From Acidobacteriota bacterium (GTDB lineage Bacteria; Acidobacteriota; UBA6911; JACQSX01): 64,000 nt of DNA. Below the pieces are notes generated by a model. The model worked only from the letters and a program-made list of their open reading frames with translations, was not told the DNA's origin and ran no database searches. A program made the translations under genes and the position numbers. The stretch is taken from assembly GCA_036505615.1 (NCBI GenBank), contig DASXTB010000409.1, forward strand, positions 4,540 to 68,539. The letters are read 5' to 3'. This document shows, one piece after another, positions 2,948 through 61,700 of the stretch; position 1 is the stretch's first letter; each line of letters begins with the position of its first letter.

Positions 2948-3505
2948 TACCTAGTGCCCAGTGGTTGTCAGTGGCACTGCAAGCACCCACAGAGCCGCGA
3001 CCGGAAGGGCGCGGCGCGGCAATCTAAGGTATCCGCACGACCCCATAACCGTGAATATCTTGGCAGCTTGCACGCACCGGATTGGGGAAGCCCGGCTATG
3101 CTGTCGCGCCGCCTCCTTCCGGCCGCGGCTCCGTGGCTGCACGCAATGCCGTGTGGTCGGGGGCGGTCGATTTCCCAAATCTGAATTGCCCTGTTCACAC
3201 CAGCGGTTTGGACTCGCTCGCTAAGCGATTTCTGTCTTCCCGCCAAAATTTTGACCAATTTGTGAACTTTACGTTCATCAAGCGGACCTAGTCTCCGTTT
3301 CTCGAGACCAGTTGCAGGTCGCTGGCCTGGCACTAAGAGTTGACCGGGACCTGGCCACTAGCAACTGGCAACTGAGCACTGCGCACTGCGCTCTAAAATT
3401 TCTTTACATTGCCCGCGTTTTTCGCTAGTTTTCACCTGAATTTAAGAACTGACCCGAAATTGGTAATTAGCAACTGCTAACTAAGCATATTTTTAAATAA
3501 AAATC

Positions 3506-4135
3506 ATGACTAAACAAAATGCAATCAACGAATATGTTCGCAAAAAGCTCCGCAAGATTCGCCTGGCTAAAAGCCTCACGCTGACGCAACTGGCGGCCCA
3601 AGCCGGGTTGCCATACAGTTCCTACGCTTGCATGGAGTCAGGTTTTTACAACATTAACCTGGATAATTTGTTTCGTATTCTAGATGTGCTGGGAGCCGAT
3701 ATCAGCGAAGTGTGGCCGACCGAGACGGCGGGGCTTCCGGCCACCGATGTTTCGCTTTACCTGAAAAAGATACAGGAGTTCCGGCTGGGTGAAATTGTTT
3801 CCCTGTGCGCCGCCGAAGGAGGAGCGCTGTTTGCCGTTCGCAACGGCAAGTGCTCGCTGCCTCTGCATCATCGCCTCAGCGACTTCCTGCTGGATCGATT
3901 GGTCCTCTATCTCGAAGACGGCCGGAAATACCCCGAAGGTTTGTGGTTTGAAAAGACGCAAGGCGACACAACATTCCACCTGTTTCTGAAAACCGAGGAT
4001 TGTCCGGCCTATGTAAAAAAGCTGGTAGAGCAATATTTGGTTATCTGGTCCAACCTCTTCTGCGGAGTGCTGATTAAAGAGGCGACGCGGCCTGGAATCG
4101 CAAAAGAGTTATTGCAGCGATCGAAACAGGGCTAG
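3506..4135 (+). CDS. XRE-family HTH transcriptional regulator with a C-terminal uncharacterised domain
   Basis: 209 aa. N-terminal helix-turn-helix (LAKSLTLTQLAAQAGLPYSSYACMESGFYNINLDNLFRILDVLGADISEV). Confidence 0.65.
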   Translation: MTKQNAINEYVRKKLRKIRLAKSLTLTQLAAQAGLPYSSYACMESGFYNINLDNLFRILDVLGADISEVWPTETAGLPATDVSLYLKKIQEFRLGEIVSLCAAEGGALFAVRNGKCSLPLHHRLSDFLLDRLVLYLEDGRKYPEGLWFEKTQGDTTFHLFLKTEDCPAYVKKLVEQYLVIWSNLFCGVLIKEATRPGIAKELLQRSKQG

Positions 4136-4513
4136 CTCTAGACCGGAGAGGAAACGCAGATCATTTCGGCTGCAGAAGAACTTCGCCTTGAGCCTCATCA
4201 GGTAATAGCTGGCAAAGAAGACGCCCACAAAAGCGATCGAACTCATTCTCAGCGCCCGCAGCCGTAGCAGGGTCTTCACATCTCCCATCAGAAAATCGGA
4301 AAACTCCAGAAACAGATTCTGTCGAGATTTAGTGTGCTGCATAAGAAGTCGAACGTCCGGAGCTTCCAAAAGCCGCAAAATATGGGCCAGAGATAGTTCT
4401 ACTTGCTCAAGACTCTTTCGCTCTGGCTCGTCCCACCGCAAGGAACACACCTGCAGGTAGAAGACATAAAGCATCAGCGCCAGCGAAATTGCTGCGATGT
4501 AGTAGTAAATCAT
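4109..4513 (-). CDS. Hypothetical membrane protein
   Basis: The ORF extends to 4615, but the internal ATG at 4513-4511 gives an ATGA overlap with the stop of the upstream membrane-protein gene (4510). Product begins with a TM helix (MIYYYIAAISLALMLYVFYL). Confidence 0.4.
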   Translation of the reverse strand: MIYYYIAAISLALMLYVFYLQVCSLRWDEPERKSLEQVELSLAHILRLLEAPDVRLLMQHTKSRQNLFLEFSDFLMGDVKTLLRLRALRMSSIAFVGVFFASYYLMRLKAKFFCSRNDLRFLSGLELALFRSLQ

Positions 4514-6057: not shown

Positions 6058-6088
6058 AGTATGGAACGAAGTATAGAACATGGATACG

Positions 6089-6245
6089 AGCGGGAGAGTG
6101 GGTGAGCGGGCGAGCGGCTGAGTGGGCGAGTCGGTAATCCCGTGATCCTTCAAACTCTCTATTATACGGTTCTCCAGTGACCGGCTCCCCTACTCCAGCG
6201 CTCTCCACTCCCCCACTCTCCCGCTCACCCACTCATTCCCTCTCC
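6089..6245. repeat. Inverted repeat (GRGAGTGGG-type units) between convergent genes
   Basis: 6089-6138 (gggagagtgggtgagcgggcgagcgg...) is the reverse complement of 6196-6245 (...ctctcccgctcacccactc). Likely a bidirectional terminator hairpin. The same unit family recurs inside a CDS at 58795-58915. Confidence 0.6.
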
Positions 6246-9435: not shown

Positions 9436-9536
9436 AAGTTCCCCTTTCACCGTCACGTTACAGGGTTCGGCTTTCAAGTTTCAAGCCGGAAACCTTTAAC
9501 CTGGATCATTCAAGAACTGAATGAATCGGCCACAGA

Positions 9537-9662
9537 TTACACGGATTTACACGGATAAGATCGGGGTCCGGGGATGGCCCCAACTGCAGTCTGACGGGCG
9601 AGTCATTCATCGCGCCCATCCCCTGACCCCGAACTTATCCGTGTAATCAGCGTAAATCGGTG
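9537..9662. repeat. Nested imperfect palindrome (CACGGAT family)
   Basis: ttacacggataagatcggggtc ... gaccccgaacttatccgtgtaa, with an inner ggggatgg...ccatcccc hairpin. Confidence 0.55.
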
Positions 9663-9778
9663 GCTGGCTCTTTTAATTCATGCATAATCCCGGTCAAGGT
9701 GTACGAACCACCTCAAATGAACTTGAAACTTGGAACTTGAAACCTGTAACTTCATCTACCTGTAACTCCATGTAAAAG

Positions 9779-11343: not shown

Positions 11344-11349
11344 CAATTG

Positions 11350-11505
11350 CGGGTTGTGGATTTCGGATTGCGGAATTAGAGAAATGCGGGTTGTCAGTGG
11401 TCCGTGGTCCGTTGTTTCTTAAGAAACCTCGTTGTTCAACAACTACGAACCACTGACAACGGACAGACTTAAATCCGCAATCCGAAATCCACAATCCGCA
11501 ATAGC
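11350..11505. repeat. Nested palindrome between convergent genes (CGGATTG outer arms, GTCCGTT inner arms)
   Basis: Outer gcgggttgtggatttcggattgcggaatt / aatccgcaatccgaaatccacaatccgcaat. Inner gttgtcagtggtccgtggtccgttg / caactacgaaccactgacaacggac. Probable bidirectional terminator. Confidence 0.6.
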
Positions 11506-13707: not shown

Positions 13708-13726
13708 AGCGTCGATTATAGCGCAG

Positions 13727-14050
13727 TACCCAGTTCGTAGTTGCCAGTTGCCAGTTACCAGTTCCCAGTGGTCTATCTTAGTGCCGGATCGGCAACTGAT
13801 GTCCAGTGCCCAGTGTTCTAGAGCCCAGCGTCCCGTTACCAGTGGCCAGTGGCCAGTTGCCAGTTCCTGGTTTCATCCTCTGGTTACTGGTGGACGATCC
13901 GGCAATAAGATCAACGACTAGGAACTGCCAACTAGCCACTGGCAGCCCGGCGCTGGGCTCTGGAACGCTGGGTACTGGACATCAGTGGCCAATCCGGCAC
14001 TAAGATGGGCCACTGGGAACTGGTAACTGGCAACTGGCAACTGGACACTG
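13727..14050. repeat. Inverted duplication of a ~105-bp CCAGTKG heptamer-array element in a divergent promoter region
   Basis: 13727-13831 is ~90% identical to the reverse complement of 13945-14050. The 113-bp centre is itself partly symmetrical. Confidence 0.7.
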
Positions 14051-14151
14051 GGTACTGAGGTTTTAAAGTTGAAAAAAAGATCCAGAGACGCCAAGATCGA
14101 ATCTTGAAAATTTTGAGTCGCAAATTAACGGATTCCCCAGTTGTGTAATTA

Positions 14152-16455: not shown

Positions 16456-16471
16456 TCGAACTGAAACTGAA

Positions 16472-16660
16472 GGTCGAAAGTCGAAAGTCGAAAGTCGAGG
16501 TCGAAAGTCGAGGTCGAAAGTCGGACGTCGAAAGTCGAATGCTATCGACTCGCTCACCTTTTGAATGGCAAACCTGAAGACCGGCTGACTTGCGACCTGC
16601 GACTTTCGATCTTCGACTTTCAACCTTCGACTTTCGACAGGACCTGCGACTTGCGACCTT
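16472..16660. repeat. GTCGAAA heptamer array (16472-16540) and its reverse-complement array (16589-16660)
   Basis: (ggtcgaaa)n ... (tttcgac)n arms flank a 48-nt loop, ending 15 nt before the permease start codon. Confidence 0.7.
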
Positions 16661-18566: not shown

Positions 18567-18903
18567 AAGCCAGCTATCAGCCATCAGTCATCGGTCATCG
18601 GTCATCGGTAGTCAGTCATTGGTAGTCCTCTCATCGGTCATTAGCTTCCGTGAGCAACTGGACCAGGGATCTGATTTATTTTCAAAAATTGCTTCGCAAA
18701 TTTTCAGCTGGAGGAGTTATGTAAAGCGGAGACTTGGCAAATTAGACCAGGAATTGCGTATGTTTCTCCGCTTGATCAACGGCTACGTCCGATCGATAGG
18801 AGACCGATGACTGATGACCGATGACCGATGACTGATAACCGATGACTGATGGCTGATGGCCGATGACCAATGACCGATTAACGATGACTGATGACCGACG
18901 ACG
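18567..18903. repeat. CATCGGT heptamer array (18567-18644) and inverted ACCGATG array (18806-18903) flanking a 160-bp unique core
   Basis: Direct read of tandem catcggt/catcagt units on the left and accgatg/actgatg units on the right. The core has SD-ATG-TAA at 18710-18724. Confidence 0.7.
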
Positions 18904-19900: not shown

Positions 19901-19929
19901 TCGGCATTGGCCGGATAAAAGCCGATCAC

Positions 19930-20025
19930 GACCACGTTCACGAGCAGGTCCACGCCTACGCGGACGAAAATACACAATCGCTCACGATTCGACTGGTCGT
20001 AGTCGTGGACGTTGACGTGTTAGCG
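19930..20025. repeat. Dispersed ~100-bp CACGNN-hexamer palindromic element, copy 1 (copy 2 inverted at 26397-26513)
   Basis: gtccacgcctacgcggacgaaaatacacaatcgctcacgattcgactggtc here matches the reverse complement of 26440-26490 with 2-3 differences. Confidence 0.7.
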
Positions 20026-21592: not shown

Positions 21593-21635
21593 AAATTGCC
21601 GTGTTCCAGGTATTTGTCGGCGCGTGGCCACAACG

Positions 21636-24352: not shown

Positions 24353-24381
24353 AAGACTTTCACACCAGGAGCGGATTAAAA

Positions 24382-41002: not shown

Positions 41003-41012
41003 GGACCAACTC

Positions 41013-43123: not shown

Positions 43124-43298
43124 GTCATCCGTCCGGATCCTGACCGCAATAATTGTCGCAAAATTTAGGGCGGCGCAGTTAGGTCTTTTATGAGGTAGGC
43201 GTACCAGTTGCAGCAACAAGAAGCCTAAGCCATTCGGAATACGCCTCTTTGGCCGGCACGGTGCGTGTTATGCTGTCTACAATCAAGGTTGCGCCATC

Positions 43299-43847: not shown

Positions 43848-43864
43848 TCCAGATTATTTTCAAA

Positions 43865-44899: not shown

Positions 44900-45047
44900 T
44901 TATGACACTCCTGATAGTTCCTTTCTACAAATGGGACGCATGCCGTGCGCCCCTACCAATATAGAAGGCAGAATTTTCATCGATCATACGACGACAATTC
45001 GCCCATAGTCATTTGAAATTCGCCATTGGAAACCCGGAATTGGCGAC

Positions 45048-45947
45048 TCATCTGGCCTTGGGGTGCGCCTTGCGGTAGACGGTCTGAAGCTGCTCGATGG
45101 AAACATGCGTGTACTTCTGCGTGGTGGACAAACTGGCATGGCCAAGCAGTTCCTGAATCATGCGCAAATCGGCGCCCGCGTTCAGGAGATGGGTGGCTGC
45201 CGAGTGGCGCAGCGTATGCGGCGAGATTTTTAACTTCAGCGCCGCCTCTCTGACGTATTTCTTTATCAGGCGCCCCACCGAGCGGGAGGTCAAGCGTGTT
45301 CCGTTCTTGTTTACAAACAGCGCTTCCGGCTGCAGACGGCCTCGGGCGATCTGTTCCCGTACCTGGAGATAGTCTCGAATCCTAGCCTCAGCTTTGGTGC
45401 CGAATGGAATGATTCGCTCTTTGCGTCCCTTTCCCAGAACGCGCACAAAGCGCTGGCTGAGATCAACGTCATCCCGGTCCAGAGCCGTCAGCTCTGATAC
45501 TCGCATTCCTGTAGCGTAGAGCAGCTCGAGAATGGCGCGATCTCTCACTGCCAGTGGAGAATCTCCTCGAGGAGCCGTCACCAGGCCGGCCGCTTCGTCG
45601 ACGTGGAGAACACGGGGAATCCGCTTCTCTTTGCGGGGCGTGGCGACGAGTTTGGCCGGATTCGACTCAATAAAGCGTTCCCGGTGCAAGAACTTGAAGA
45701 ACGAGCGAAGCGTCGCAATCTTCCGTCCCGCGGTTGACGGTTTGCGTTCCCTGGAATGAAGCGATGACAGAAAATCCCGAATCGCAATATGGTCCACTCT
45801 TGACGGCTCGATCTCCTTCACGCTCCATTGGGCGCAAAGGAAATCGTGAAATTGCGCCAGATCGCTTCTGTAGGCGCGCAGCGTCTGCGGCGAATACCCT
45901 TTCTCGCTCTCCAGGTATTTCAAGAACAGGCGGGTTAGGGCTTTCAT
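45048..45947 (-). CDS. Tyrosine site-specific recombinase XerC/XerD
   Basis: 299 aa. R...HTLRHSAATHLLNAGADLRMIQELLGHASLSTTQKYTHV (catalytic Tyr). Confidence 0.85.
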   Translation of the reverse strand: MKALTRLFLKYLESEKGYSPQTLRAYRSDLAQFHDFLCAQWSVKEIEPSRVDHIAIRDFLSSLHSRERKPSTAGRKIATLRSFFKFLHRERFIESNPAKLVATPRKEKRIPRVLHVDEAAGLVTAPRGDSPLAVRDRAILELLYATGMRVSELTALDRDDVDLSQRFVRVLGKGRKERIIPFGTKAEARIRDYLQVREQIARGRLQPEALFVNKNGTRLTSRSVGRLIKKYVREAALKLKISPHTLRHSAATHLLNAGADLRMIQELLGHASLSTTQKYTHVSIEQLQTVYRKAHPKAR

Positions 45948-45960
45948 CTTAAGTTAGGTC

Positions 45961-46150
45961 GCAAGTCGCAGGTCGCAGGTCGAATCCTCAAGTCGCAGGT
46001 CGCAGGTCGCACGTCGAAATCCTCAAGTCGCAGGTCGCAAGTCGCAGGTCGCAGGTCGAAAGCGAAAACCCAGACTTTTAAAGTTCCTCTTAAAAATGAA
46101 AAAGGGGTCATGGACTCGGAACCTGCGACGTGCGACCTGCGACTTGTAAC
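45961..46150. repeat. GTCGCAG heptamer arrays in inverted orientation
   Basis: (gtcgcaggtcgcaag)n at 45961-46060; cctgcgacgtgcgacctgcgac at 46120-46145. Overlaps the last ~13 codons of trmFO. Confidence 0.65.
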
Positions 46151-47547
46151 CTTTGTTTACAGAATTCTTCCATCGCCTGGCGCGCCAGCGCAATTTGACC
46201 AGCCCGGCGCACTTCTTTTTTCCCCCGCATTTCGACAGGCGGCAGCAACCCAAAGTTTATGTTCATCGGCTGAAAGCTCGCCGAATCTGCCTGGGTGATG
46301 TAATGCAGAAGGCTCCCAATTGCGGTCTCTCGAGGAAACTCGAGCGGGTTGCCTCCTGAAGCCACTCGCATGGCATTCCATCCGGCAACCAGTCCGGTGG
46401 CCATTGATTCGACATACCCCTCCACTCCGCAGATCTGGCCCGCGAAATAGATCTCCGGCCGAAACTTCAACTGAAGCGCCCGGTTTAGCAGCCGGGGAGC
46501 GTTAATAAACGTGTTTCGATGAATCTGGCCCAGCCGGATAAATTCGGCGCGCTCCAGGCCCGGGATCAGCCGGAAGACTCGCTGCTGTTCCCCGTAGCGA
46601 AGGTGATTTTGAAAACCTACCATGTTATACGCGTCGGCCACCAGGTTTTCCTGGCGCAGTTGTACCACTGCATATGGCTGCAGGCCAGTTCGAGGGTCGC
46701 GCAGGCCAACAGGCTTCATAGGGCCAAATCGGAGTGTGTCAAGCCCGCGGCGGGCCAGCTCCTCGATTGGAAGACAGGCCTCAAAGAACATCGCCTTTTC
46801 GAATTCCTTAACAGCGACCGACTCCGCATGCAGAAGAGCGTCGTAGAAGCGCTCGTACTGATCGCGTGCCATCGGGCAATTCACATAATCGCCGTCAGCG
46901 TGCTGTTGGACTTCCGCTTGTTTACAGGCAGCGTGCTGCGTTTCAGTGGAATGACCGGTTTCCTGTGGAGACTCAGCCCGCCGCTTCTCTTCCAAAATTC
47001 GATGATCGTATCGCGAGCGCCGAAAAACCTTGTCCCAATCAATCGAGTCGGATTCCACGATGGGACTGATGGCATCGTAAAAATAGAGCGCCGCTTCACC
47101 GGTCATCTCCTTAATGAAGCGCGAAAGTCCCGGTGAGGTGAGCGGCCCGGTGGCGATGATGGCAATTTGGCCCGCGGGAATCTCGACCACTTCGGACCTT
47201 TCTACGCGGATTGAGGGATGGTTTTGCAGGGTCTGTGAAATCGTCTGGCTGAACTTTTCCCGATCCACGGCAAGAGCCGCTCCGGCCGGAACTTTGACCC
47301 GGTCGGCAATGGAGATTAGCAGAGAGCCGCACCGCCGCAGTTCCCATTTCAGCTGGTGTGGCGCGCTCCCCTCGAGGTCGGACTTGAACGAATTGCTGCA
47401 CACCAGCTCGCCCAGCCAGTCGGTTTGATGAGCCGCGGTCTTGACCGCAGGCCGCATTTCAAACAGGCAAACCTTGCCGCCCTGCTGCGCAATCTGCCAC
47501 GCAGCCTCTGACCCTGCCAGTCCACCACCGATGACCCAGATCTCCAT
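46108..47547 (-). CDS. trmFO: Methylenetetrahydrofolate--tRNA-(uracil54-C5)-methyltransferase TrmFO (Gid)
   Basis: Start at MEIWVIGGGLAGSEAAW (FAD GxGxxG). FAGQICGVEGYVESMATGLVAG. C-terminal ~13 aa are repeat-encoded. Confidence 0.85.
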   Translation of the reverse strand: MEIWVIGGGLAGSEAAWQIAQQGGKVCLFEMRPAVKTAAHQTDWLGELVCSNSFKSDLEGSAPHQLKWELRRCGSLLISIADRVKVPAGAALAVDREKFSQTISQTLQNHPSIRVERSEVVEIPAGQIAIIATGPLTSPGLSRFIKEMTGEAALYFYDAISPIVESDSIDWDKVFRRSRYDHRILEEKRRAESPQETGHSTETQHAACKQAEVQQHADGDYVNCPMARDQYERFYDALLHAESVAVKEFEKAMFFEACLPIEELARRGLDTLRFGPMKPVGLRDPRTGLQPYAVVQLRQENLVADAYNMVGFQNHLRYGEQQRVFRLIPGLERAEFIRLGQIHRNTFINAPRLLNRALQLKFRPEIYFAGQICGVEGYVESMATGLVAGWNAMRVASGGNPLEFPRETAIGSLLHYITQADSASFQPMNINFGLLPPVEMRGKKEVRRAGQIALARQAMEEFCKQRLQVAGRTSQVPSP

Positions 47548-47552
47548 GGTAT

Positions 47553-47700
47553 TAAATGGGACACGGATGAACACGGAATACACGGATGAAGCCCCCGTCG
47601 CGGCCGGTCAAGAGACCGGTTCAGTATGTGGTTGGTCGGCCGCGACGGGGGCTTCATCCGTGTATTCCGTGTTCATCCGTGTCCTGATAAAACGGCAAGA
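47553..47700. repeat. Giant perfect palindrome (48-bp stem, 30-nt loop), CACGGAT family
   Basis: ggacacggatgaacacggaatacacggatgaagcccccgtcgcggccg ... cggccgcgacgggggcttcatccgtgtattccgtgttcatccgtgtcc. Confidence 0.75.
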
Positions 47701-51574: not shown

Positions 51575-52039
51575 ATGTCGCCGACTGGCAAGAGACAACG
51601 CCAGACCCTGATTCGCAGGATTATCGCTGAAGAGGAAATCTTCAGCCAGGAAGAATTGCGAAATGAACTGCTGAAGCGCTCGGTGAATGTTACGCAGGCC
51701 ACTCTTTCCCGCGACATCGCCGAGCTGGGCCTGGTAAAACAGTCCTCCACGGGAACCTACACGCTTCCTGAAAACGTGACTGAACATACAGAGGCTCACG
51801 CCATTTTGGCCCGCATGCGCCAACTGGTTCAGGAGATCGATTTCTCAGGCAACCTGGTGCTGGTCAAGACCGCGCCAGGCGACGCGCAAGCAGCGGGACT
51901 TGCCATGGACCACCTTCAATTCAAGGAAGTGGTGGGAACCATCGCCGGCGACGATACCCTGCTCGTGGTGATACGGGCAAAATACAAAGCATCGGGCTTT
52001 GCCAGAAAACTGGAGAAAATGCTGGCAGGAGAAGGCTAG
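51575..52039 (+). CDS. argR: Arginine repressor ArgR
   Basis: 154 aa. N-terminal winged helix (FSQEELRNELLKRSVNVTQATLSRDIAELGLVK). C-terminal GTIAGDDTLLVV. No SD; a TAGAAT -10-like hexamer lies 9 nt upstream, so the transcript may be leaderless. Confidence 0.85.
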   Translation: MSPTGKRQRQTLIRRIIAEEEIFSQEELRNELLKRSVNVTQATLSRDIAELGLVKQSSTGTYTLPENVTEHTEAHAILARMRQLVQEIDFSGNLVLVKTAPGDAQAAGLAMDHLQFKEVVGTIAGDDTLLVVIRAKYKASGFARKLEKMLAGEG

Positions 52040-52450
52040 GAGGCAGGAAGCAGGAGGCAGGAAGCAAACGGCAGGAAGCAGGAAGCAGGAAGCAGGAGGC
52101 AGGAGCCAGGAGGCAGGAGGCAGGAGGCAGACGGCAGAAGGCGGAGGCAGAAAGCGGAAGGCCGAAGGCGGAAAGCGGAAGGCAGTAGACAGAAAGCGGA
52201 AGGCGGAAAGTGGAATGCAGCAGGCGATGGCTTACAAGGCGTCATCTGTCATTCGTCATTTGTTACCCACAACGACAGACGACGATTTGATACGTGAACT
52301 GTCTTCTGCCTTCCGCTTTCTGCCTGCTGCTTTCTGCCTGCTGCTTTCTGCCTTCTGCTTTCTGCCTCCTGCTTTCTGCCTTCCGCCTTCCGCTTTCTGC
52401 CTACAGCCTTCCGCTTTCTGCCTACAGCCTTCCGCTTTCCGCCTTCCGCC
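52031..52450. repeat. GCAGGAA heptamer array (52031-52230) and inverted TTCCTGC array (52300-52450) between argR and argF
   Basis: ggaggcaggaagcaggaggcaggaagc... versus ...ctgccttccgctttctgcctgctgctttctgcc. Confidence 0.75.
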
Positions 52451-53416
52451 TTAAACGAACTCCCGGTGCAGCGCTTTCAGCAGCAGGGCCTTGTGCACGT
52501 GCAGGCGGTTTTCGGCCTGGTCGTAGACGATGGAGCGCGGTCCATCGATAACTGAATCAGAGACTTCTTCACCCCGGTGCGCGGGAAGGCAGTGCATGAA
52601 GAACGCCTTCTTGCCGGCGCGGGTCATCAGTTGTGGAGTCACCTTGTATTGTGCAAAGTCCCGCAACTTCCTTTCTGCATCCCTCTCCTGGCCCATACTG
52701 ACCCAGGTGTCTGTGTAAACGGCATCCGCTCCAAAAAGATGGCCCAGATCGTGGCTGAATTCCACGATGCTGCCGCTCTCCCCGGCAAATTGTGCCGCGC
52801 GCCGGCAGCAGAGTGCGTCCGCCTCATAACCGGGAGGCGAGATCAGAGTGAAGTGCATTCCCAGCAGAGCGCAAATCTGCATCAGCGAGTTACTGACGTT
52901 GTTGGGGTCTCCCACGTAAACCAGCTTGCGATGCTTCACCTCACCCCAGCGCTGCTGCAACGTCAGGACGTCGGCCAGCACCTGGCAGGGATGTTCAAAA
53001 TCGCTGAGCGCATTAATCACCGGGATGGATGAATTTCGAGCCAATTCCTCCAGCGTCGATTGGGAGAATGTTCGAGCAATCACAATGGAGCACCAGCGCT
53101 CCAGATTCCTTCCTGTGTCCTTGATCGATTCCCGTTCACCAATCTTCTGCTGCTGGCAATCCAGAAAACTGGCCGTACCTCCCATGCTGTGCATTCCAAT
53201 TTCAAAAGTGAGACGGGTGCGGAGAGAAGGCTTTTCAAACAGCAACACGGCGTGACAGCCGGAGAGCGAATTCTGATGCGTCTCGGGCGCATTCTTCACC
53301 AGACACGCCAGTTGCAGCAGGTCGTGGATGCGTTCCACGCTGAGATCGGAGATCGCAAGCAGATGTTTCGGCCAGTCCCCCGCTGGATTCGTCTTAGGCT
53401 TCTTCAAGTTCTTCAT
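52451..53416 (-). CDS. argF: Ornithine carbamoyltransferase
   Basis: FEKPSLRTRLTFE (STRTR-type carbamoyl-phosphate site), HCLPAHRGEE. Start taken at MKNLKK (the ORF extends to 53524). Confidence 0.85.
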   Translation of the reverse strand: MKNLKKPKTNPAGDWPKHLLAISDLSVERIHDLLQLACLVKNAPETHQNSLSGCHAVLLFEKPSLRTRLTFEIGMHSMGGTASFLDCQQQKIGERESIKDTGRNLERWCSIVIARTFSQSTLEELARNSSIPVINALSDFEHPCQVLADVLTLQQRWGEVKHRKLVYVGDPNNVSNSLMQICALLGMHFTLISPPGYEADALCCRRAAQFAGESGSIVEFSHDLGHLFGADAVYTDTWVSMGQERDAERKLRDFAQYKVTPQLMTRAGKKAFFMHCLPAHRGEEVSDSVIDGPRSIVYDQAENRLHVHKALLLKALHREFV

Positions 53417-54826: not shown

Positions 54827-56176
54827 TCAAGCCCGCTTCCCCAAAGGTTGAGATTGATGCTTTTCGTCTTCCTGCCGACTGCCTTCTGCCTCCTGCCTTC
54901 CGCCTTCTGCTTTCTGCCTTCTGCCTTCCGCTTTTTGCCCTCCGCCGTCTGCTTCCTGCCTGCTGAGCGGAGAGGGTCGCAGCAGCGCGTTCACACGCAG
55001 GCGCGTCGCCTGCAGGCGGATGAATCCTTCGGCGTCCTTCTGCCGGTAAACGTCGTCCTTTTCAAATGTCGCCAACTCCTCTGAGTAGAGAGACCGGGCC
55101 GCACGCCGTCCCAGCACGCTGCAGTTTCCCTTGTACAAACGCAGCTTGACTTCACCGGTCACGTTCTCCTGGCTTTCACGGACAGTTTTCTGCAGCAGCC
55201 GCATTTCCGGCGAAAACCAGAAGCCGTAATAGGTCCACTCAGCAAACTTCAGGCTCAACTCTTCTTTCCAGTGCTGGACTTCGCGATCCAGTGTGATCGA
55301 TTCCAGAGCCCGGTGCGCGTGCCACAGCAAAGTGGCGCCCGGCGTTTCGTACACTCCGCGAGATTTCATCCCTACGAAGCGATTTTCCACCAGATCGACG
55401 CGGCCCACGCCATGAACTCCACCCAGCTTATTGGCCTCCTCCAGAAGTTCCACCGGGCCAAGCGGCCGGCCATTGATGGCGACAGGAATTCCTTTTTCAA
55501 AGCTGAAAACAACCGTCTCTGGACGCTCCGGGGCAGTGACCGGGTTGGCCGTCAGGATGTATATATCCTCCGGAGCCTCGGCCCAAGGATCCTCAAGGAT
55601 TCCTCCCTCGTGGCTGCAGTGCATCAGATTACGGTCGGTGCTGTAGGGCTTTTCCAGAGTGGCCGTCACCGGCAGCGAATGCTTCCTGCAATACGCGATC
55701 AGATCGGAGCGGGACTGCATCTCCCAGTCGCGCCAGGGAGCGATTACCTGAATATCAGGAGAAAGTGCGTAGAAGGTGAGTTCAAAGCGAACCTGATCGT
55801 TGCCCTTGCCGGTGGCGCCGTGCGCGACGCAGAAAGCCCCCTCCTTTCGCGCTACTTCCAACTGATGCTTGGCGATGACGGGGCGAGCCAGCGAGGTGCC
55901 CAGAAGATAATAACCCTCGTAAAGGGCGTTTGCCTGAATTGCCGGGAACACGTAGTCACGGACGAATTCTTCGCGCAGGTCCAGAATGAGGCTCTTGGAA
56001 GCGCCCAAGGATTTGGCCTTCTCTTGCAACCCGTCCAGCTCTTCGGCCTGGCCTACGTCGGCGGTAAAGGTGACGACCTCGTATCCTTTTTGATGCTTCA
56101 GCCAATGAAGCATCACTGTCGTGTCCAGCCCGCCGGAGTAAGCCAGCACGACCCGCTTTAAATTCTTCTCCTGCAT
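54827..56176 (-). CDS. argG: Argininosuccinate synthase with a repeat-encoded low-complexity C-terminal tail
   Basis: 449 aa. [10 protein letters not shown] (PP-loop). The last ~45 aa ([37 protein letters not shown]) are translated from the GCAGGAA-family array at 54845-54965. Confidence 0.9.
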
Positions 56177-56254: not shown

Positions 56255-59200
56255 TCACGGGATGGGCGCGCGAATTCCGCGAATGCGGTAGTTGCCTGTA
56301 TCGGCGAAGAGAAGATTGCCGGCAGGGTCGAAATCCAGAAACGACGGCAGCTTCAGAGCGGTGTTGGTGGCCTGAGTGTTGTCACCCGTGAAGCCGCTTA
56401 TCCCGTTGCCGGCCACCGTAGTGATGACACCTGTCTTTGCTGCCACCCTTCGAATCCTTGTCTCTTCCGAAACGAAAAGATTGCCGGCGGCGTCGAACTT
56501 AACGCCCACTGGATGGTTCAGGCCCGCAGCCGTAGCAGGCCCGTTATCACCGGAGGAACTGGCCTGGCCGTTGCCGGCCACCGTCGTGATAATGCCCGTA
56601 GCGGCGTCCACCCGGCGCACCCGATTGTTCCCACTGTCTGCGATTACTAAATTTCCGGCACTGTCAACGGCAATACCTGTCGGCGAATTCAAAGCGGCAT
56701 CGGTCGCAGGGCCGTTGTCGCCAAGACGATCGGATGGGCTTCCTCCTCCCACGGCCGTGGTAATGATGCCGCTTCTCAGATCCACCCTACGAATCCGGTT
56801 GTGGTTTGTGTCTGCGACGTAAAGCACCCCCGCGCGGTCGATGGCGATTCCTTGCGGCAAATTGAGGCTGGCGGCGGTGGCCGGTCCGTTATCCCCTGAG
56901 AAATCCGACTGACCGTTTCCCGCCACGGTTGTGATGACGCCGGCGCCGTCCACTTTTCGAATTCTGTTGTTTAGCGAGTCGGAAATGAAAAGATTTCCAC
57001 TCCCGTCGATGGCCACGCCAGTTGGAGAGCTTAATGGACTCGAGGCGGCTGGAACATTGTCTCCAAGAAAACCGGCAATTCCGGTTCCGGCGACAGTGGT
57101 GATAATCCCGGTGCTTGCGGTAACTTTTCGGATCCGTTGGTTTCCGAAATCTGCAATAAAAAAGTTTCCCGCAGCATCCACCGCGATTCCTTGCGGCGAA
57201 AGCAAATTGGCTGCCGTTGCCGGTCCGCCATCCCCCAGGAAACTTTGTTGGCCGTTGCCTGCCACTGTGGTAATCGTTCCCGCCGAGACCCTTCGAATCC
57301 GGCTATTTCCCTGATCCACGATCAAAAGATTGCCGGCGCCATCTGTCGCCACTCCGTAGGGTGATGACAAGGCAGCCTGCGTCGCAGGGCCGCCGTCTCC
57401 AGAGAAACCCTGCACCCCAGTTCCAGCTACAGTGGTGATGATTCGCGTGGAGGCGTCGACCCGCCGAACACGGTGGTTGGCTGTGTCGCCAATGAAAAGG
57501 TTACCAGCGACGTCCACGGTAATACCGGCGGGAGAATTCAGCATCGCGCTGGTTGCACTCTGCAAGTCGCCGGAAAAGCCGGCCTGCCCGTTTCCCGCGA
57601 CCGTGGTAATCACTTTCGAAGCGGCATCGATTCTTCGAATCCGTTGATTGACCGTGTCGGCAACGAAGACATTACCGGAAGCATCCAGCGCAATTCCTTG
57701 GGGGGATCTGAGGGCCGCGGCCGTGGCCGGCCCGTTGTCGCCGCCAAAGTCTGGATCCGTTCCTGCAATCGTAGTGATGATTCCGGTCTTTGCATCGACT
57801 TTGCGAATACGGTGATTCGAAGTGTCGGCGATAAGCAAATTGCCTGCTCCATCGATCGCCACTGCGCGTGGGGCATTCAACGTTGCCTGAGTGGCCGGCC
57901 CCCCATCCCCGGCGAAGGGCCCCAGCCCGCGTCCCGCAACGGTTGTGATAGTTCCAGTCGCCGCGACGATTTTTCGGACCCGGCTGTTTGCTGTGTCCGC
58001 GACGTATAGATTCCCCGCACTATCGATGGCGATTCCTCGTGGGAAAGCCAGCGAAGCGGCGATAGCCGGCCCGCCGTCGCCGGAAAAGCCGATCTGGCCG
58101 TTGCCCGCCACGGCAGTAATAATTCCGGTCGCCGCGTTGATCTTTCGGATGCGATTATTATTTGCGTCTGTAAAGAAAATATTTCCCGCAGGGTCGACGG
58201 CCATTTGCTGCGGGCTGAAAAGAGTAGCTTCAGTGGCCGGACCTCCGTCGCCCGTAAAAGTCGTCCCTCCGGCGACCGTGGTGATCTGTCCGGGAAGCAA
58301 ATCACTTAGAGGAATCGGATCGACGAGCAAGGGTTTCTGCGCCACGCCGCCGCGGTTCTGCACTGTCAGAGTCAGGCGGCCGCTGGGAAGCGGAGGCGCG
58401 ATAACAGTCAGCGTCTGCGTGTCCAAGACCTGCGGGTTTGCCACGACCCCTCCCACGATCACCACTGTCTCAGGCGCAAAATTCCTTCCGCTGATTGTGA
58501 CCAGCGCGCCGCCTTTGTTGCTGACTCGGCCGGGATTGATGCTGGAGATCGACGGCTCGCCGTAGGTGATTTCGCCGTTGGAGCGGCTGCTGTCGGCCAC
58601 CAGAACCTTTCCGCTGCGCGTGATGGCGATTCCTCTGGGAGTGGCGAACGTATTGGCTTGAGCGGCGGCGGCGATATCTCCGTTTCGCAGCAGGGCAGTT
58701 ATCTGACCTGAATTTGCCTCCGTCACATAGATGTTACCGAAAGGATCTACCGCTACGCCGGTGGGGGATTTGAATTTCAACGGGGAGACTGCGAAAGGGC
58801 GAGTGAGGGAGGAGGAGAGCGGGGGAGTGGGAGAGGGGGGGAGTGAGAGAGTGTGGGAACGGGGGAGTGGGCGAGTGGGAGAGTGGGTGAGCGGGAGAGT
58901 GGGAGATGTCGGAAATGTAACTCGCCCGACATTCCTCTTGGCTGCAATGGCGCCGATGGTTTCCACTGTGCCGTCTTCTTTAACCCGGCGCAGCAGGCCG
59001 TTTCCGGTGTCGGCGACGATGACACTGACCGGCGGCGGAGGATCTCCCGTTGCTTCGCGCGCCAGTTGCTGGCCGAGCGACTCGGTCTCAACTGCGATCC
59101 CGGCAGGGAAGTTGAAGCTGGCAGCGGAGCCGACTCCATCCGCTGCGCCGGCCACACCCGCTCTTCCAGCAACGGTCTCCACCGTCTTTGCCTTGCTCGG

Positions 59201-61468
59201 ATCCAGGCTGATTCTGCGGATGGTGTGGTTATTCGAATCGGCAATCCAAAGGTTGCCGCGATCGTCCAGCGCCATCCCCTGCGGATTGTTGAAGGTGGCT
59301 GCGTTGACCGGGCCATCCAGGCTCCCGGCTTGGCGCGTTCCGGCCAGCGTGTCCGCGCGGCCGCTGGGGCCCGGCCGCACCTGGCGAATGACATTGTTGT
59401 CGCTGTCGCTGACGTATAAACTGCCGTCGAATTGATTGAGCACCAGAAACGACGGCCTCTGAAACAAGGCCTTCAGTCTTTCATCTTCGCGGAAGCCGGG
59501 AGTCTGACTGACTCCTGCATACAACGCCGGAGTGGATTCAAGGTCGGGCGCAAGCAGGATGGTGTGATCGCTGGAATCTGCCAGATAAACTCTTCCGCCC
59601 AGATCCTGCGCAATTCCCGTGATTACAAAGCCCGCTTCTGCAAATTTGTCGCGCTTTCTCTGCACTACGGCGCCGGAAGTAACTTTGACCACTGTAATGG
59701 TGGCTCGGATCTCCGTTCCCCCACCCGAAACTTTCAGTGTGGCAAAGCCACGAAGCTTGCCCTGGATTTTTCCCAGATCATCCACAAAGGCGACATCGGG
59801 GCTGAGACTGCTCTGCGCCAGCGTGATTTCGTCGCGTATGTTGCCGTCGCTATCGAGCGCCCGCGCGCGGAGTTGAGCGATGTTCCCTTCGTTGACGATG
59901 ACTTCCTTGGCCGAGGGATTAAAAGGGTCCAGGGCAATGCGCGCTACGGCAACAAGTTGTCCCGGCGTCAATTGGACTCCACCGCCCGGAAGGATCCGGT
60001 ATGGAAACCGGCTGTCGGTTTGAACTCCCAGGGGAAGGGTCAGTCCGTTGCCGTCGTCGCGGAAAAAGCTTACTGACCCGGTCGAGGCTCTAATCTTGTC
60101 CGTGCCGATGAAGATCAAGCTTGTGGAATATCCGGCGCCGAAGCCGATCTGAGGAAAAACGAGAGAAGTAGCGGTGACGGGCCTTGTCAAGTCGGCGATG
60201 GGAAGAGTTGTCAGGATGGGATGATTTCTCTGATTGATGCTCAGCTTCAAGGTAACCGGCGCTACCGGCACAGGACTGCTGATTTCCATCAGGCCGGTGA
60301 AATTGGACGGCGCATCCGGAAATAGTTCATCGACGAAGATGGGGAGATGCCCTCGCGGAGGCAGTACCCGAGTTGTTCGTTGAATCAGGTCTCCGCTGCG
60401 GCCCATCAGGTCGAAGGTCACCGTGGTTTGGGGATTGTCGGGGCTGGCAATGGCAATGCCGGTGCGGGTGGCCCTGTTGTCTACAAAGACGCGCGCATCG
60501 GTTGTGGGCGCCACCGCAGCCACTCCTGCTTCGCTCACGACGCGGTTGTTCGATGTGAACTGGAAAATAGCGCTGCCAGCCGGAGCCGCGCTTCCTTGAA
60601 GTAGAGTCACCACGGCATAACCCACCGCAGTACCCGAGGAGCTGTTGAGTTGTGCGCGATATACGCCATCGGCCTCGATCTGATAGGGGAATTCCGAGGA
60701 GACAGCCGCGGATGCTTCTCCCAATGACGCGGATGAGGGACAGCACGCTATTTCTCTATCGGAAACCTTCGTGAGCTGAAATTGCAGGGGCATCCCGTCC
60801 GATCCGATCAACTGAATCATGCCGCCGATCCGCTGAGAGCTGCGATTAATCAGGACCAGTTGAGTTGATAAATTACTTCCGGCGCCGATCTGAGGGAAAA
60901 CAATTGATCCGGTTGCCGGCGTCGCTGACATGTCCACCACCGGAAGCGTGGCATAAATCGGCTCGTCCAAGACGTTTCTGCTTTCGCGCAGAGTGATGGC
61001 CGCCAGCTTTTGATCGCTTTCAAAACTGAGGCTGCCCATAAAAGAGAGAGGCAGATTGGTAAAAAGTTCATCGACGAACAAGGCCAGATGCTGGCGAGGC
61101 GCGAGCGTTTGATTTTTTCGATCCACTTCTTTACCCGAAGCATCTCGCAGAACCAGTGTCAGGATCGCCTTTTGGTCGGATGGATTGACGATGGCAACGG
61201 CGGTGCGTCTCCCTTGTTGGTCGACAAAGATTCTTCCCGAGCGGATCGGTTCTGCGGCGCCCACACCGGCCTGCCAAATCATCACACCGTTGGTATTTGT
61301 GAACGTGAACAAAGCTGTGCCCACGGGCGTGGCGCTTCCGCTGTCGGCGGTGATCACAGCGTATCCCACCTGTAATGAAGTTTGGGAATAGACAAAGCAG
61401 AAGAGAGCAACCGCGAAGAGCGCCACGAGCGTGAAGCGTCCGAGCCGCAGCCAAAAGTCATCAGTCAT
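56255..61468 (-). CDS. Giant secreted NHL-repeat beta-propeller protein (1737 aa) with IPT/Ig-like domains
   Basis: N-terminal hydrophobic anchor/signal. More than 20 NHL-type repeats (GDGGPAT..L..P.GIA.D..GN.Y.AD..N.RIRKV). IPT-like segment (RVSNKGGALVTISGRNF). An internal in-frame heptamer-repeat linker at 58795-58915. Confidence 0.75.
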   Translation of the reverse strand: MTDDFWLRLGRFTLVALFAVALFCFVYSQTSLQVGYAVITADSGSATPVGTALFTFTNTNGVMIWQAGVGAAEPIRSGRIFVDQQGRRTAVAIVNPSDQKAILTLVLRDASGKEVDRKNQTLAPRQHLALFVDELFTNLPLSFMGSLSFESDQKLAAITLRESRNVLDEPIYATLPVVDMSATPATGSIVFPQIGAGSNLSTQLVLINRSSQRIGGMIQLIGSDGMPLQFQLTKVSDREIACCPSSASLGEASAAVSSEFPYQIEADGVYRAQLNSSSGTAVGYAVVTLLQGSAAPAGSAIFQFTSNNRVVSEAGVAAVAPTTDARVFVDNRATRTGIAIASPDNPQTTVTFDLMGRSGDLIQRTTRVLPPRGHLPIFVDELFPDAPSNFTGLMEISSPVPVAPVTLKLSINQRNHPILTTLPIADLTRPVTATSLVFPQIGFGAGYSTSLIFIGTDKIRASTGSVSFFRDDGNGLTLPLGVQTDSRFPYRILPGGGVQLTPGQLVAVARIALDPFNPSAKEVIVNEGNIAQLRARALDSDGNIRDEITLAQSSLSPDVAFVDDLGKIQGKLRGFATLKVSGGGTEIRATITVVKVTSGAVVQRKRDKFAEAGFVITGIAQDLGGRVYLADSSDHTILLAPDLESTPALYAGVSQTPGFREDERLKALFQRPSFLVLNQFDGSLYVSDSDNNVIRQVRPGPSGRADTLAGTRQAGSLDGPVNAATFNNPQGMALDDRGNLWIADSNNHTIRRISLDPSKAKTVETVAGRAGVAGAADGVGSAASFNFPAGIAVETESLGQQLAREATGDPPPPVSVIVADTGNGLLRRVKEDGTVETIGAIAAKRNVGRVTFPTSPTLPLTHSPTRPLPRSHTLSLPPSPTPPLSSSLTRPFAVSPLKFKSPTGVAVDPFGNIYVTEANSGQITALLRNGDIAAAAQANTFATPRGIAITRSGKVLVADSSRSNGEITYGEPSISSINPGRVSNKGGALVTISGRNFAPETVVIVGGVVANPQVLDTQTLTVIAPPLPSGRLTLTVQNRGGVAQKPLLVDPIPLSDLLPGQITTVAGGTTFTGDGGPATEATLFSPQQMAVDPAGNIFFTDANNNRIRKINAATGIITAVAGNGQIGFSGDGGPAIAASLAFPRGIAIDSAGNLYVADTANSRVRKIVAATGTITTVAGRGLGPFAGDGGPATQATLNAPRAVAIDGAGNLLIADTSNHRIRKVDAKTGIITTIAGTDPDFGGDNGPATAAALRSPQGIALDASGNVFVADTVNQRIRRIDAASKVITTVAGNGQAGFSGDLQSATSAMLNSPAGITVDVAGNLFIGDTANHRVRRVDASTRIITTVAGTGVQGFSGDGGPATQAALSSPYGVATDGAGNLLIVDQGNSRIRRVSAGTITTVAGNGQQSFLGDGGPATAANLLSPQGIAVDAAGNFFIADFGNQRIRKVTASTGIITTVAGTGIAGFLGDNVPAASSPLSSPTGVAIDGSGNLFISDSLNNRIRKVDGAGVITTVAGNGQSDFSGDNGPATAASLNLPQGIAIDRAGVLYVADTNHNRIRRVDLRSGIITTAVGGGSPSDRLGDNGPATDAALNSPTGIAVDSAGNLVIADSGNNRVRRVDAATGIITTVAGNGQASSSGDNGPATAAGLNHPVGVKFDAAGNLFVSEETRIRRVAAKTGVITTVAGNGISGFTGDNTQATNTALKLPSFLDFDPAGNLLFADTGNYRIRGIRAPIP
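58795..58915. repeat. GRGAGTGGG heptamer array embedded in-frame in the NHL-protein CDS
   Basis: gggagtgggagagggggggagtgagagagtgtgggaacgggggagtgggcgagtgggagagtgggtgagcgggagagtgggag. Translated on the minus strand as PTLPLTHSPTRPLPRSHTLSLPPSPTPPLSS. Confidence 0.7.
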
Positions 61469-61499
61469 CGGTCACCATTGTAGCGCCGGTCTCCAGGCC

Positions 61500-61700
61500 G
61501 GCCTTCGAACGAATCTGGGCAGAAGGAAATGCCGGCCGGAGGCCGGCGCCTCAGGTTTGGACACCTTGGAGAGACGGCCTGAGGGCCGTCTCCTGCGCAA
61601 TCTTGCATCGTGCAAGAGACGCCCCACGGGGCGTCTCTCCAATAGCGCCGCTTCGCGGCGCCAATGCCGGCCGGAGGCCGGCGCTACAGTTTTTTCTCAC
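61500..61700. repeat. Run of six short perfect GC-rich hairpins between the two NHL paralogs
   Basis: gccggccggaggccggc (twice), gagacggcctgagggccgtctc, cttgcatcgtgcaag, gagacgccccacggggcgtctc, gcgccgcttcgcggcgc. Confidence 0.6.

Follow-up and report, generated by a model that had tools for sequence, protein, structure and literature searches.

Hairpin-Forming Pairs of Heptanucleotide Repeat Arrays in the Intergenic DNA of an Acidobacteriota Clade

Introduction

Tandem arrays of heptanucleotide units, most of them paired with their own reverse complement, lie between the genes of a 64-kb stretch of Acidobacteriota DNA (contig DASXTB010000409.1), which we refer to as the window, meaning the whole stretch analyzed. 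The closest described systems come from cyanobacteria and Xanthomonas. Hairpin-forming 7-bp STRR (short tandemly repeated repetitive) elements are "not unusual" in filamentous cyanobacteria, as in the hupS–hupL gap, and roles in transcript stability and translational coupling have been proposed for them (PMC2670836). In Xanthomonas, Rehm et al. 2015 described ∼185 GGGAATC arrays each in X. campestris and X. axonopodis, with 70 to 75 convergent inverted pairs per genome; 89 to 93% of the arrays are intergenic, they sit nearer the upstream gene, from one species to another their length varies but their type (single or paired) usually stays the same, and quadruplexes have been proposed for them (PMC4692102). 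Few paired GGGGAYT arrays were found in Nostoc by the same authors (PMC4692102). An earlier reading of the window, made from its letters alone (the sequence-only reading), took the inverted-pair architecture to be undescribed; it had in fact been published, both as the Xanthomonas inverted pairs (PMC4692102) and as the cyanobacterial STRR hairpins (PMC2670836). In addition, a post-transcriptional role has been proposed for the TAACTGA arrays of marine Beggiatoaceae, some cyanobacteria and Bacteroidetes (MacGregor 2015, PMC4679880), and an excess of heptanucleotide repeats in bacteria, with 7 nt as a polymerase footprint, is attributed to Mrazek et al. 2007 in the summary given in PMC4679880. 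Our literature searches returned nothing linking heptamer repeats to Acidobacteria or Chloracidobacterium.

This excess has been noted since 2007, and the clade described here is an unusually rich natural system for its study: arrays make up a fifth of the non-coding DNA and come in many families, with near-obligatory pairing, nesting and a graded series of species in which the two arms change jointly. It opens to comparative genomics and transcriptomics the questions of how arms stay complementary, why the unit is 7 nt and why the G-rich arm comes first. At a practical level, the arrays break short-read assemblies and mislead gene callers into extending open reading frames (ORFs), and repetitive leader peptides and C-terminal tails arise in otherwise conserved proteins.

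Period-7 Arrays in the Window

Tandem Repeats Finder returned 91 rows on the window, corresponding to ∼21 loci, and placed an array at every coordinate listed by the sequence-only reading. In a period scan (at least 80% self-match over 28 nt, with five dinucleotide shuffles as control), period 7 accounts for 942 bp, with 700 and 568 bp at its multiples 14 and 21; coverage is 52, 48, 153 and 50 bp for periods 8, 13, 16 and 18, respectively, and 0 bp for the remaining periods. The five shuffles gave 0 bp of tandem coverage at every period. Period 7, with its multiples, is the sole strongly over-represented tandem period in the window.

Against a map of 48 genes built from ORFs, Pfam matches and homologues, period-7 arrays occupy 1648 of 8049 non-coding bp (20.5%) compared with 253 of 55951 coding bp (0.45%), a 45-fold enrichment in non-coding DNA. 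The map includes argR, argF, argH and argG, uvrD, trmFO–xerC, genes for two giant NHL-repeat proteins and, on the minus strand at 26636-39642, a type II secretion operon that runs from gspD to gspE. Arrays are found in 18 of the 32 intergenic gaps of at least 40 nt, with five of six convergent, three of five divergent and 10 of 21 co-directional gaps occupied, the last including five consecutive spacers of the secretion operon. An array usually starts 0 to 6 nt from a stop codon, or overlaps it, and ends ∼7 to 12 nt before the next start codon.

These data bear out the view that the window harbors STRR-like tandem arrays, mostly of 7-nt units and in several recurrent families, of which there are at least 10 in the window and its relatives. 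The heptamer families of the sequence-only reading are present, but several of those it listed have a period of 6, 8, 9 or 10; the non-heptamer families are CACGTN (period 6), GRGAGTGG (period 8 or 16), CACGGGGAA (period 9) and NNNCACGGAT (period 10). That reading also overstated some particulars, placing arrays in "nearly every" gap, or roughly one per gap, giving 5 to 25 copies per array where the real copy numbers range from 2 to 25, and calling GC-rich, a generous label, a sequence whose GC content is 51 to 60% (about 55%).

Pairing, Folding and Polarity

A partner was scored when two reverse-complement units, with at most two mismatches, lay within 350 nt of a period-7 array of at least three copies. 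By this test 20 of 24 arrays have a partner, compared with 0 of 24 when the reversed, uncomplemented unit was used as control. The two arms are 18 to 240 nt apart, a wider range than the 50 to 160 bp first proposed, and five loci are single-armed (3329-3401, 9719-9752, 35901-35959, 54868-54965 and 58797-58906). Both an inverted-repeat finder and folds compared with dinucleotide shuffles support hairpin formation by the paired arrays. The longest arms are 141 nt with 85% complementarity (13724-13864 / 13917-14057), and the corresponding segment 13715-14065 folds with z = −22 using DNA parameters. RNA folds of five further loci gave z values of −18, −4.5, −8.5, −8.0 and −10.4, and whole-gap values range from about −4 to −46.

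In four hairpins the register is unique: the arms are complementary at 0.82 to 0.96, compared with at most 0.57 when one arm is shifted by 7. These are true mirror images, variant units and non-repeat segments included. Four others are "slippery," in that several registers pair about equally well, and the two arms of a hairpin often differ greatly in length, as with 105 and 32 nt. The pairs also share a polarity: in 26 of the 31 pairs at paired loci of the window and its relatives the G-rich arm is the 5′ arm, all pairs with an absolute skew of at least 0.38 begin with the G-rich arm, and in the opposite direction the most extreme value is −0.33. Since the two strands of a palindrome read alike, strand has no bearing on this polarity. 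The order corresponds to the one reported as "convergent" in Xanthomonas, and the viral loci L049, L061 and L065 (see below) are included in the observation.

The hairpins are not intrinsic terminators. No T-run is present on either side of any of 16 hairpins, and the textbook terminator that does occur in this DNA, GGGCGGGATCCCCCGCCC followed by six T at 24384-24407, stands apart, 150 nt upstream of the separate hairpin at 24558-24712. Stems of 25 to 140 bp lacking a U-tract fall outside the definition of a Rho-independent terminator, and a terminator-like scan of 24000-40000 returned 21 matches compared with 18.2 expected, none of which spans a full repeat hairpin. The suggestion that the elements did not arise by simple terminator evolution agrees with these findings. 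An Rfam scan of the window returned no RNA family, and no tRNA or tmRNA gene was found in it.

Many of the hairpins lie inside operons and so, to judge from the gene order, must be transcribed, in which case stable stems would form in the mRNA. The predicted RNA stems would be very stable, at about −40 to −280 kcal/mol. Secondary effects are probable, among them 3′-end protection or stability, RNase III-type processing and translational pausing or altered ribosome passage.

The Two Arms Change Together at Orthologous Spacers

We compared the gspE–gspF and gspF–gspG spacers in eleven species. The gspE–gspF spacer of the window contains a 171-nt GCGGATT / AATCCGC hairpin, and hairpins of the same units, one longer and one short, occupy the spacers of L039 and L031. 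In L030, with 96% GspF identity and ∼84% nucleotide identity, the spacer holds a 305-nt GCGGAAT / ATTCCGC hairpin with an unrelated loop. L033 harbors a GCGGGTT / AACCCGC hairpin, and in L040 a GCGAGTT-type outer stem surrounds an inner AATTGAAAA hairpin. The spacer of L041 has no arrays, that of L035 is 6 nt long, and the outgroup spacers, of 12 to 86 nt, contain ordinary small stems. In all six hairpin-bearing species the 3′ arm complements the 5′ arm despite the change of unit.

When each 5′ arm was aligned to its own partner (the 3′ arm, reverse-complemented) and, separately, to the orthologous 5′ arms, the own-partner score equaled or exceeded every orthologous-arm score in five of the six species. 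In the window the own partner scores 49 compared with 23 for the L030 arm, and in L030 the own partner scores 52 compared with 23 to 28; the exception is L039, where the own partner scores 42 and the window arm 45. Because the own partner matches or beats the orthologous arms in five of six species, the two arms at gspE–gspF evolve in concert.

At gspF–gspG, a GTCCGTT / AACGGAC hairpin is present in five species with differing copy numbers, and the loop of the L033 hairpin encloses another, CGGGTTG / AACCCGT. Nesting is also seen at window 11346-11502 and at L033 14570-14760. One case of dispersal of a whole hairpin was found. The segment at 19915-20019 is a partial, inverted copy, loop included, of the hexamer hairpin at 26387-26524; blastn aligns it, truncated, to 26415-26526, 6.4 kb away, with 90% identity over 112 nt, and the two copies differ by exactly one 6-nt unit. 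In an all-against-all comparison of gaps this is the only pair that shares non-repeat sequence.

Distribution among Relatives and Independent Assemblies

The JGI metagenome contig L023 matches window 35423-46399 with 99.918% identity over 10,977 nt, with nine substitutions and no indels. Its five array loci, ∼700 bp in all, differ from the window by one substitution and no indel. Because no indel separates the arrays from those of this 99.92%-identical contig, they are not hypermutable contingency loci. Seven other Acidobacteriota assemblies, from different projects, show the same architecture and unit families. The sequence-only reading had named confinement to the window and assembly artefact as ways in which it might fail, and neither applies, since relatives share the families and L023 reproduces five loci without an indel; the comparison of orthologous regions that it had proposed reveals presence/absence differences between related genomes.

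L023 itself has one end (window 35423) 36 nt from the array at 35387 and the other at about 52400, and by length extrapolation both lie at arrays. L041 (4673-4826) ends inside a 22-copy ACTGACG array. Short-read contigs tend to break at the arrays, and the repeats fragment assemblies of this clade.

Our comparison took in ∼150 kb of related loci along with the 64-kb window. Acidobacteriota metagenome-assembled genomes (MAGs) are the closest relatives, the best match in a scan of genome contigs being 74% identical, and two pairs of the compared sequences, L031 and L032 and L033 and L034, are effectively identical. A scan of metagenome contigs with GspF found only distant relatives (28 to 37% identity), of no use for orthologous spacers. 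Syntenic loci of relatives carry ATTCCGC, AATCCGC, GTCCGTT, AGGAGGC and CAGTGCC units, and the same classes of unit turn up in more than one genome and at loci that are not orthologous (AATGCGG in 17 arrays, AATCCGC in nine and AACGGAC in five, with AAGGCAG also at several loci). Array load, expressed as bp of period-7 array per kb, is 29.7 in the window, 37 in L030, 27 in L003, 22 in L033 and 14 in L001. It is 5 to 7 in L031, L035 and L002, 0 to 1.6 in the next relatives, L036 to L038 (63 to 67% GspF identity), and 0 or near 0 at Terriglobia and Bryobacterales loci (1.5 in L009). Small arrays, one inverted pair among them, are present at a few Blastocatellia loci. A GspF tree resolves three ingroup subclades, and arrays are present in all three; between subclades the load varies from 6 to 7 up to 22 to 37 bp per kb. 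On these sequence comparisons, the arrays appear to be specific to one clade within the Acidobacteriota.

The unit itself travels further. The 21-mer (GCGGAAT)3 occurs in 34 IMG/VR viral contigs (L042 to L075) of 46 to 70% GC, and these contigs are rich in diverse heptamer arrays, at up to 83 bp per kb. Because they are found in viral contigs that span this range of GC, heptamer arrays and the GCGGAAT unit are widespread. However, a reverse-complement partner is present for only 10 of the 117 viral arrays; near-obligatory pairing is what sets the acidobacterial clade, and Xanthomonas, apart.

Comparison with Known Repeat Systems

The arrays resemble STRR sequences in that both consist of tandem 7-bp units in several dispersed families, are mainly intergenic, including operon spacers, and are hairpin capable. 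Indeed, head-to-tail repetition of 7-bp units holds here for all but a minority of loci with a period of 6, 8, 9 or 10, and the families are dispersed and mostly intergenic. The host, however, is not a filamentous or heterocystous cyanobacterium with canonical units, the relatives all being Acidobacteriota MAGs. By taxon and units the arrays therefore do not qualify as STRR sequences in the strict sense. The dominant units, GCGGAWT and GTCCGTT, we take not to be canonical STRR units, but the GGTCATT unit of L001 presumably equals STRR2 (TTGGTCA), and CCAGTGC is, on the same assumption, one base from STRR1 (CCCCAGT). The acidobacterial arrays further differ in that reverse-complement pairing is the rule, in contrast to the few pairs of Nostoc, in that arms reach 140 to 200 nt and hairpins nest, and in that periods 6, 8, 9 and 10 join in.

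With Xanthomonas they share intergenic heptamer arrays in convergent inverted pairs, the G-rich arm first and a similar unit, GGAAT(C/G)(G/C). Whereas one G-tract unit, quadruplex capable, dominates there, at least 10 families occur here, most without G-runs: a G3 run is missing from GCGGAAT, GCGGATT, GTCCGTT, CATCGGT, GTCGAAA, CCAGTTG and AAGGCAG, and only the period-8/16 GGGAGAGTGGGGGAGT family has one. With respect to both G-tracts and the dominance of a single unit, the arrays thus fall outside the G-quadruplex class of Xanthomonas. The arrays here are also longer, occupy far more of the non-coding DNA (20%) and extend into coding leaders and tails.

Repetitive extragenic palindromes (REPs) of proteobacteria are 20- to 40-nt palindromes of conserved sequence, linked to REP-associated tyrosine transposases (RAYTs). 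Like REPs and the composite elements built from them (bacterial interspersed mosaic elements, BIMEs, and REP doublets forming hairpins, REPINs), the hairpins are abundant extragenic palindromes at convergent gene ends and in operon interiors, form dispersed families and are of a kind proposed to stabilize mRNA. Their arms, by contrast, are variable tandem arrays of 25 to 200 nt without a conserved core, which places them outside the REP/REPIN definition. The TAACTGA arrays are likewise intergenic heptamer arrays close to start codons, with a unit similar to the AACTGAC / AACGGAC family here, but they are direct repeats (one inverted case among 170 sets) of two to six copies of a single unit, oriented to the downstream gene (PMC4679880). 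Collectively, inverted heptamer pairs and repeat hairpins are already known; those described here are unusually elaborate in families, pairing and nesting.

Intrusion into Coding Sequence

In none of the six reading frames do the main units contain a stop codon, and because of this ORFs run through the arrays, in frame and in several species. An apparent enrichment of stop-free units (8 of 9 counted by hand, with ∼52% expected by chance) was not significant and was dropped. The clearest intrusion is in the pseudopilin genes, where translated repeat units, IPHSAF and NPQSAIR, stand immediately before RR|GF(T/S)L(I/L)E, the motif for prepilin cleavage in GspH and GspI. Such array-encoded leaders are found at window 33999-35428, L030 6956-8199, L033 12602-13108 and L040 5579-6763, and the stretch from array to cleavage site is devoid of canonical start codons. 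The nearest in-frame start of window gspH is a TTG 13 codons upstream, and that of window gspI is 53 to 96 codons upstream, giving a leader of at least 53 residues; elsewhere these starts are 30 to 32 (L030), 17 (L033) and 21 to 24 (L040) codons upstream. L031, which is array-free at this site, has a normal 9-residue leader. The gspI ORF, which keeps its TAATG overlap with the gspH stop, is in frame through both arms of its hairpin.

Intrusions also affect two C-terminal tails and one linker. Past its Pfam domain ArgG extends for ∼55 residues, among them QKAEGRR-type repeats encoded by the 54868-54965 array (argG 3′ end, 54827-54990), and the final ∼15 codons of the trmFO ORF (3′ end 46108-46152) are encoded by the trmFO-side arm of a hairpin (46120-46152). 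The array at 58797-58906 is translated as a Pro/Ser/Thr-rich linker of a 1737-aa NHL-repeat protein. The occasional in-frame intrusion noticed in the sequence-only reading is therefore real, and the positions affected, prepilin leaders, C-terminal tails and a linker, are all ones that tolerate low-complexity peptide. In addition, gspG, encoding the major pseudopilin, is tandemly duplicated in the window (35428-36399), L030, L033 and L040 and single in L031; the second copy is flanked by repeat arrays.

Origin of the Hairpins

We lean toward the view that these are clade-specific, largely mutation-driven tandem-repeat hairpins of the same general kind as the cyanobacterial STRR sequences and the Xanthomonas GGGAATC pairs. 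Under this model, arrays would lengthen and shorten by replication slippage of whole units, as suggested by the paralogous pair that differs by exactly one unit. Changes in one arm, the joint unit change being directly visible, would be copied to the other by intrastrand template switching of the quasipalindrome type or by arm-to-arm conversion, and selection for pairing may contribute. Intrastrand template switching is known for quasipalindromes. A small vocabulary of units (GCGGAWT, GTCCGTT, AAGGCAG and others) would be seeded afresh elsewhere whenever an entire hairpin is, on occasion, copied to a new locus, consistent with the one dispersed copy and with the nesting of hairpins in the loops of others. 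Finally, selection on coding sequence would halt expansion, and we propose that arrays fill gaps from stop codon to start codon because expansion ends where this selection begins. Both slippage with template switching and some dispersal of whole hairpins, suggested at the outset, fit the data. The placement of arrays in all gap types, the lack of T-runs and the abutment on stop codons are signs of a DNA-level or neutral process.

Several points weigh against this view. Array length shows no polymorphism between the window and L023 (five loci, ∼700 bp), and slippage is thus not fast on the time-scale of strains. The same sites in the operon keep their hairpins over a GspF divergence of about 22%, and this persistence, the placing of the G-rich arm first in 26 of 31 pairs and the restricted unit vocabulary are features that a purely neutral process does not predict. 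Moreover, arm-to-arm template switching is something we infer from comparison of the sequences.

The alternative that survives best, though we judge it improbable, is that the hairpins are selected RNA elements, that is, intercistronic or 3′-UTR (untranslated region) stem-loops that set mRNA stability, processing (through RNase III or as exonuclease barriers) or translational coupling, the repeat structure being merely how such stems get built. The persistence of the gspE–gspF and gspF–gspG hairpins in five to six species despite sequence turnover, the joint change of arms that preserves pairing, the presence of a hairpin in five of six convergent gaps and the ending of stems ∼7 to 12 nt before start codons would all follow from such a role. 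Transcript stability and translational coupling have been proposed for STRR hairpins (PMC2670836), and most Xanthomonas heptamer arrays are transcribed (PMC4692102). However, hairpins also lie in divergent promoter gaps (13724-14057 and 9530-9665), their 50- to 140-bp stems far exceed the need of any known stabilizer, the orthologous sites of L035 and L041 are empty, the arms are often as unequal as 105 and 32 nt, and single-arm arrays occur. G-U pairs, counted in nine co-directional spacers, number 36 in the sense and 32 in the antisense direction; this lack of strand asymmetry speaks against RNA elements, but the symmetry neither proves nor excludes selection at the RNA level. On the strength of the divergent promoter gaps, the G-U symmetry, the unequal arms, the empty orthologous sites and the differences in load between subclades, we favor a DNA-level process over a uniform RNA role.

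It is more doubtful that the hairpins are non-autonomous mobile elements, of the miniature inverted-repeat transposable element (MITE) or REPIN type, moved in trans by a transposase encoded elsewhere, with each unit family being one element family. One whole hairpin, arms and loop, does occur twice, 6.4 kb apart and inverted; unit families are common to many non-orthologous loci and several genomes, hairpins nest in the loops of others, orthologous spacers differ in presence or absence, and the polarity could reflect descent from a founder element. But the hairpins have no conserved termini and no fixed length, no target-site duplications or shared termini were found at the flanks of 16 of them, the copied pair has no target-site duplication and one of its copies is truncated, all of which is at odds with a MITE. 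The loops and flanks of same-family hairpins are unrelated, and just one pair of gaps shares non-repeat sequence. No transposase or RAYT-like (IS200/IS605-like) gene was found among the ∼40 window ORFs scanned against Pfam, and the continuous drift of units between species at a fixed site indicates evolution in place.

We also give a small chance to a further idea, that an active process dedicated to building and spreading repeat-armed palindromes may operate in the clade, whether a property of polymerase or repair or a structure-specific enzyme, and that the cell may use the double-stranded RNA stems as operon punctuation. If so, the polarity and the likeness of units to those of Xanthomonas, Nostoc and Beggiatoaceae would point to one conserved heptamer-generating or -reading factor across distant phyla, and such a shared factor would account as well for the surplus of 7-nt repeats long recognized in bacteria.

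There is little to recommend the notion that the arrays are binding platforms or non-B DNA, with a protein such as a cold-shock-domain protein reading single-stranded 7-nt units or with the G-rich arms forming quadruplexes. The restricted vocabulary would suit it (GCGGAAT resembles GGGAATC of Xanthomonas, GCGGATT resembles GGGGATT of Nostoc, and AACTGAC resembles TAACTGA), as would the finding of (GCGGAAT)3 in 34 viral contigs of 46 to 70% GC and the G3 to G5 runs of the GGGAGAGTGGGGGAGT family. Yet quadruplexes are excluded for most units, which have no G-run, at least 10 unit families would require many binding specificities, arm pairing would hide single-stranded sites, and no candidate protein was identified. 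An assembly artefact or collapsed repeat, to which the breaking of short-read contigs at arrays (L023 and L041) might hint, is in practice refuted by the independent JGI contig, which repeats five loci with one substitution and no indel, by the seven further assemblies with the same architecture and by the in-frame reading of ORFs through arrays in several species. We likewise rejected CRISPR arrays, since spacers are missing and the period is much too short; CsrA-type GGA decoys, since GGA motifs are located in stems and are missing from several families; and DNA uptake sequences, which are single motifs whereas the repeats here form arrays.

Individual Loci and Neighboring Features

In the left part of the window, a single-arm array of CTGGCAA / ACTGCGC units, detected by Tandem Repeats Finder, occupies a divergent gap at 3329-3401 and resembles one arm of the hairpin at 13.7 kb, with 79% identity over 71 nt to 13716-13785. 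The convergent gap that follows matrixin-like and response-regulator genes contains a period-8/16 hairpin, GAGCGGGCGAGTGGGT ... CCACTCAC, at 6087-6235 (gap fold z = −9.0). A further divergent gap harbors both a hairpin at 9530-9665, whose outer arms have two copies of TTACACGGAT (RNA fold −75.7 kcal/mol, z = −8.0), and the separate single AACTTGA array at 9719-9752. The nested hairpin at 11346-11502 lies in a convergent gap and has outer ATTGCGG / AATCCGC and inner GTCCGTG / ACGGAC units (−79.8 kcal/mol, z = −10.4).

The largest mirror-image hairpin, of CCAGTTG / CCAGTGC units, is located at 13724-14057 between divergent ParB-like and uvrD genes; its 141-nt arms are 85% complementary and its register is unique, with complementarity of 0.85 compared with at most 0.57 at shifts of 7. 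Farther along the window, a GAAAGTC / GACTTTC-GACCTGC hairpin (16469-16659, z = −5.5) separates the co-directional uvrD and amino-acid permease genes, and a CATCGGT / GACCGAT hairpin fills a convergent gap at 18571-18902 (z = −12.3), its 3′ arm overlapping the final 24 nt of a beta-propeller ORF. The hairpin containing CACGGGGAA, at 24558-24712, has 50-nt arms (24558 / 24663) with 96% complementarity by the inverted-repeat finder. The CACGTN hexamer hairpin at 26387-26524, of which 19915-20019 is the copy, occupies the convergent gap between an aldehyde dehydrogenase gene and gspD (−75.7 kcal/mol, z = −8.5).

Within the secretion operon all arrays lie on the minus strand. A GCGGAAT / ATTCCGC hairpin at 34491-34773 is located between gspH and gspI, inside the gspI leader-peptide ORF, and a GCGGATT / AATCCGC hairpin at 35234-35387 between gspG2 and gspH, where its gspH-side arm (35234-35338) is translated into the gspH leader. 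The single-arm GCGGAAT array between gspG1 and gspG2 (35901-35959) is conserved in L030. The GTCCGTT / AACGGAC hairpin of the gspF–gspG gap, at 36415-36522 (z = −4.5), is found at the same site in five species, and the GCGGATT / AATCCGC hairpin at 37753-37917, which fills the gspE–gspF spacer at a site orthologous in six species, has 55-nt arms at 93% (37757 / 37857) by the inverted-repeat finder.

Two minus-strand hairpins flank trmFO. One, of GTCGCAG / CTGCGAC units, separates trmFO and xerC at 45958-46152; the other, between the NtrC-like gene and trmFO at 47559-47684, contains three copies of NNNCACGGAT in 53-nt arms that are 96% complementary (47559 / 47632) and folds at −110 kcal/mol (z = −18). 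Genes that start straight after a hairpin, gspF (37747-37752), trmFO (47548-47558) and xerC (45948-45957), have short A/T-rich leaders, such as AAATTAAAAAATG, with no visible Shine-Dalgarno sequence; gspG, by contrast, has GAGGA.

The largest array pair, ∼25 copies of AGGCAGG / AGAAGGC compared with ∼22 copies of CTGCCTT, fills the convergent argR–argF gap at 52030-52452 and touches both stop codons (z = −17.8), with many overlapping registers (52041-52225 / 52299-52452). The remaining two loci are single-armed and on the minus strand: the CTGCCTT array at 54868-54965, in the ArgG C-terminal extension, and the period-8/16 array GGGAGAGTGGGGGAGT at 58797-58906, inside the 1737-aa NHL-repeat gene.

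A second class of repeats, unrelated to the heptamer hairpins, consists of short palindromes, GC-rich and REP-like, such as GCTCCGCCGGG(4-6 nt)CCCGGCGGAGC and TGCCGGCCGGAGGCCGGCGC. They are located at 41820-41851, 41917-41941 and 41984-42010 and within 61484-61700 (where 61530-61549 equals 61666-61685), and are clustered in two gaps free of heptamer hairpin pairs, with only a 19-nt AGTCATC array (61456-61474) edging the second. Finally, a non-tandem inverted repeat at 20088-20143 / 20321-20376, with 56-nt arms that are 91% complementary and 177 nt apart, adjoins an ORF with a GIY-YIG nuclease motif (20417-21673).

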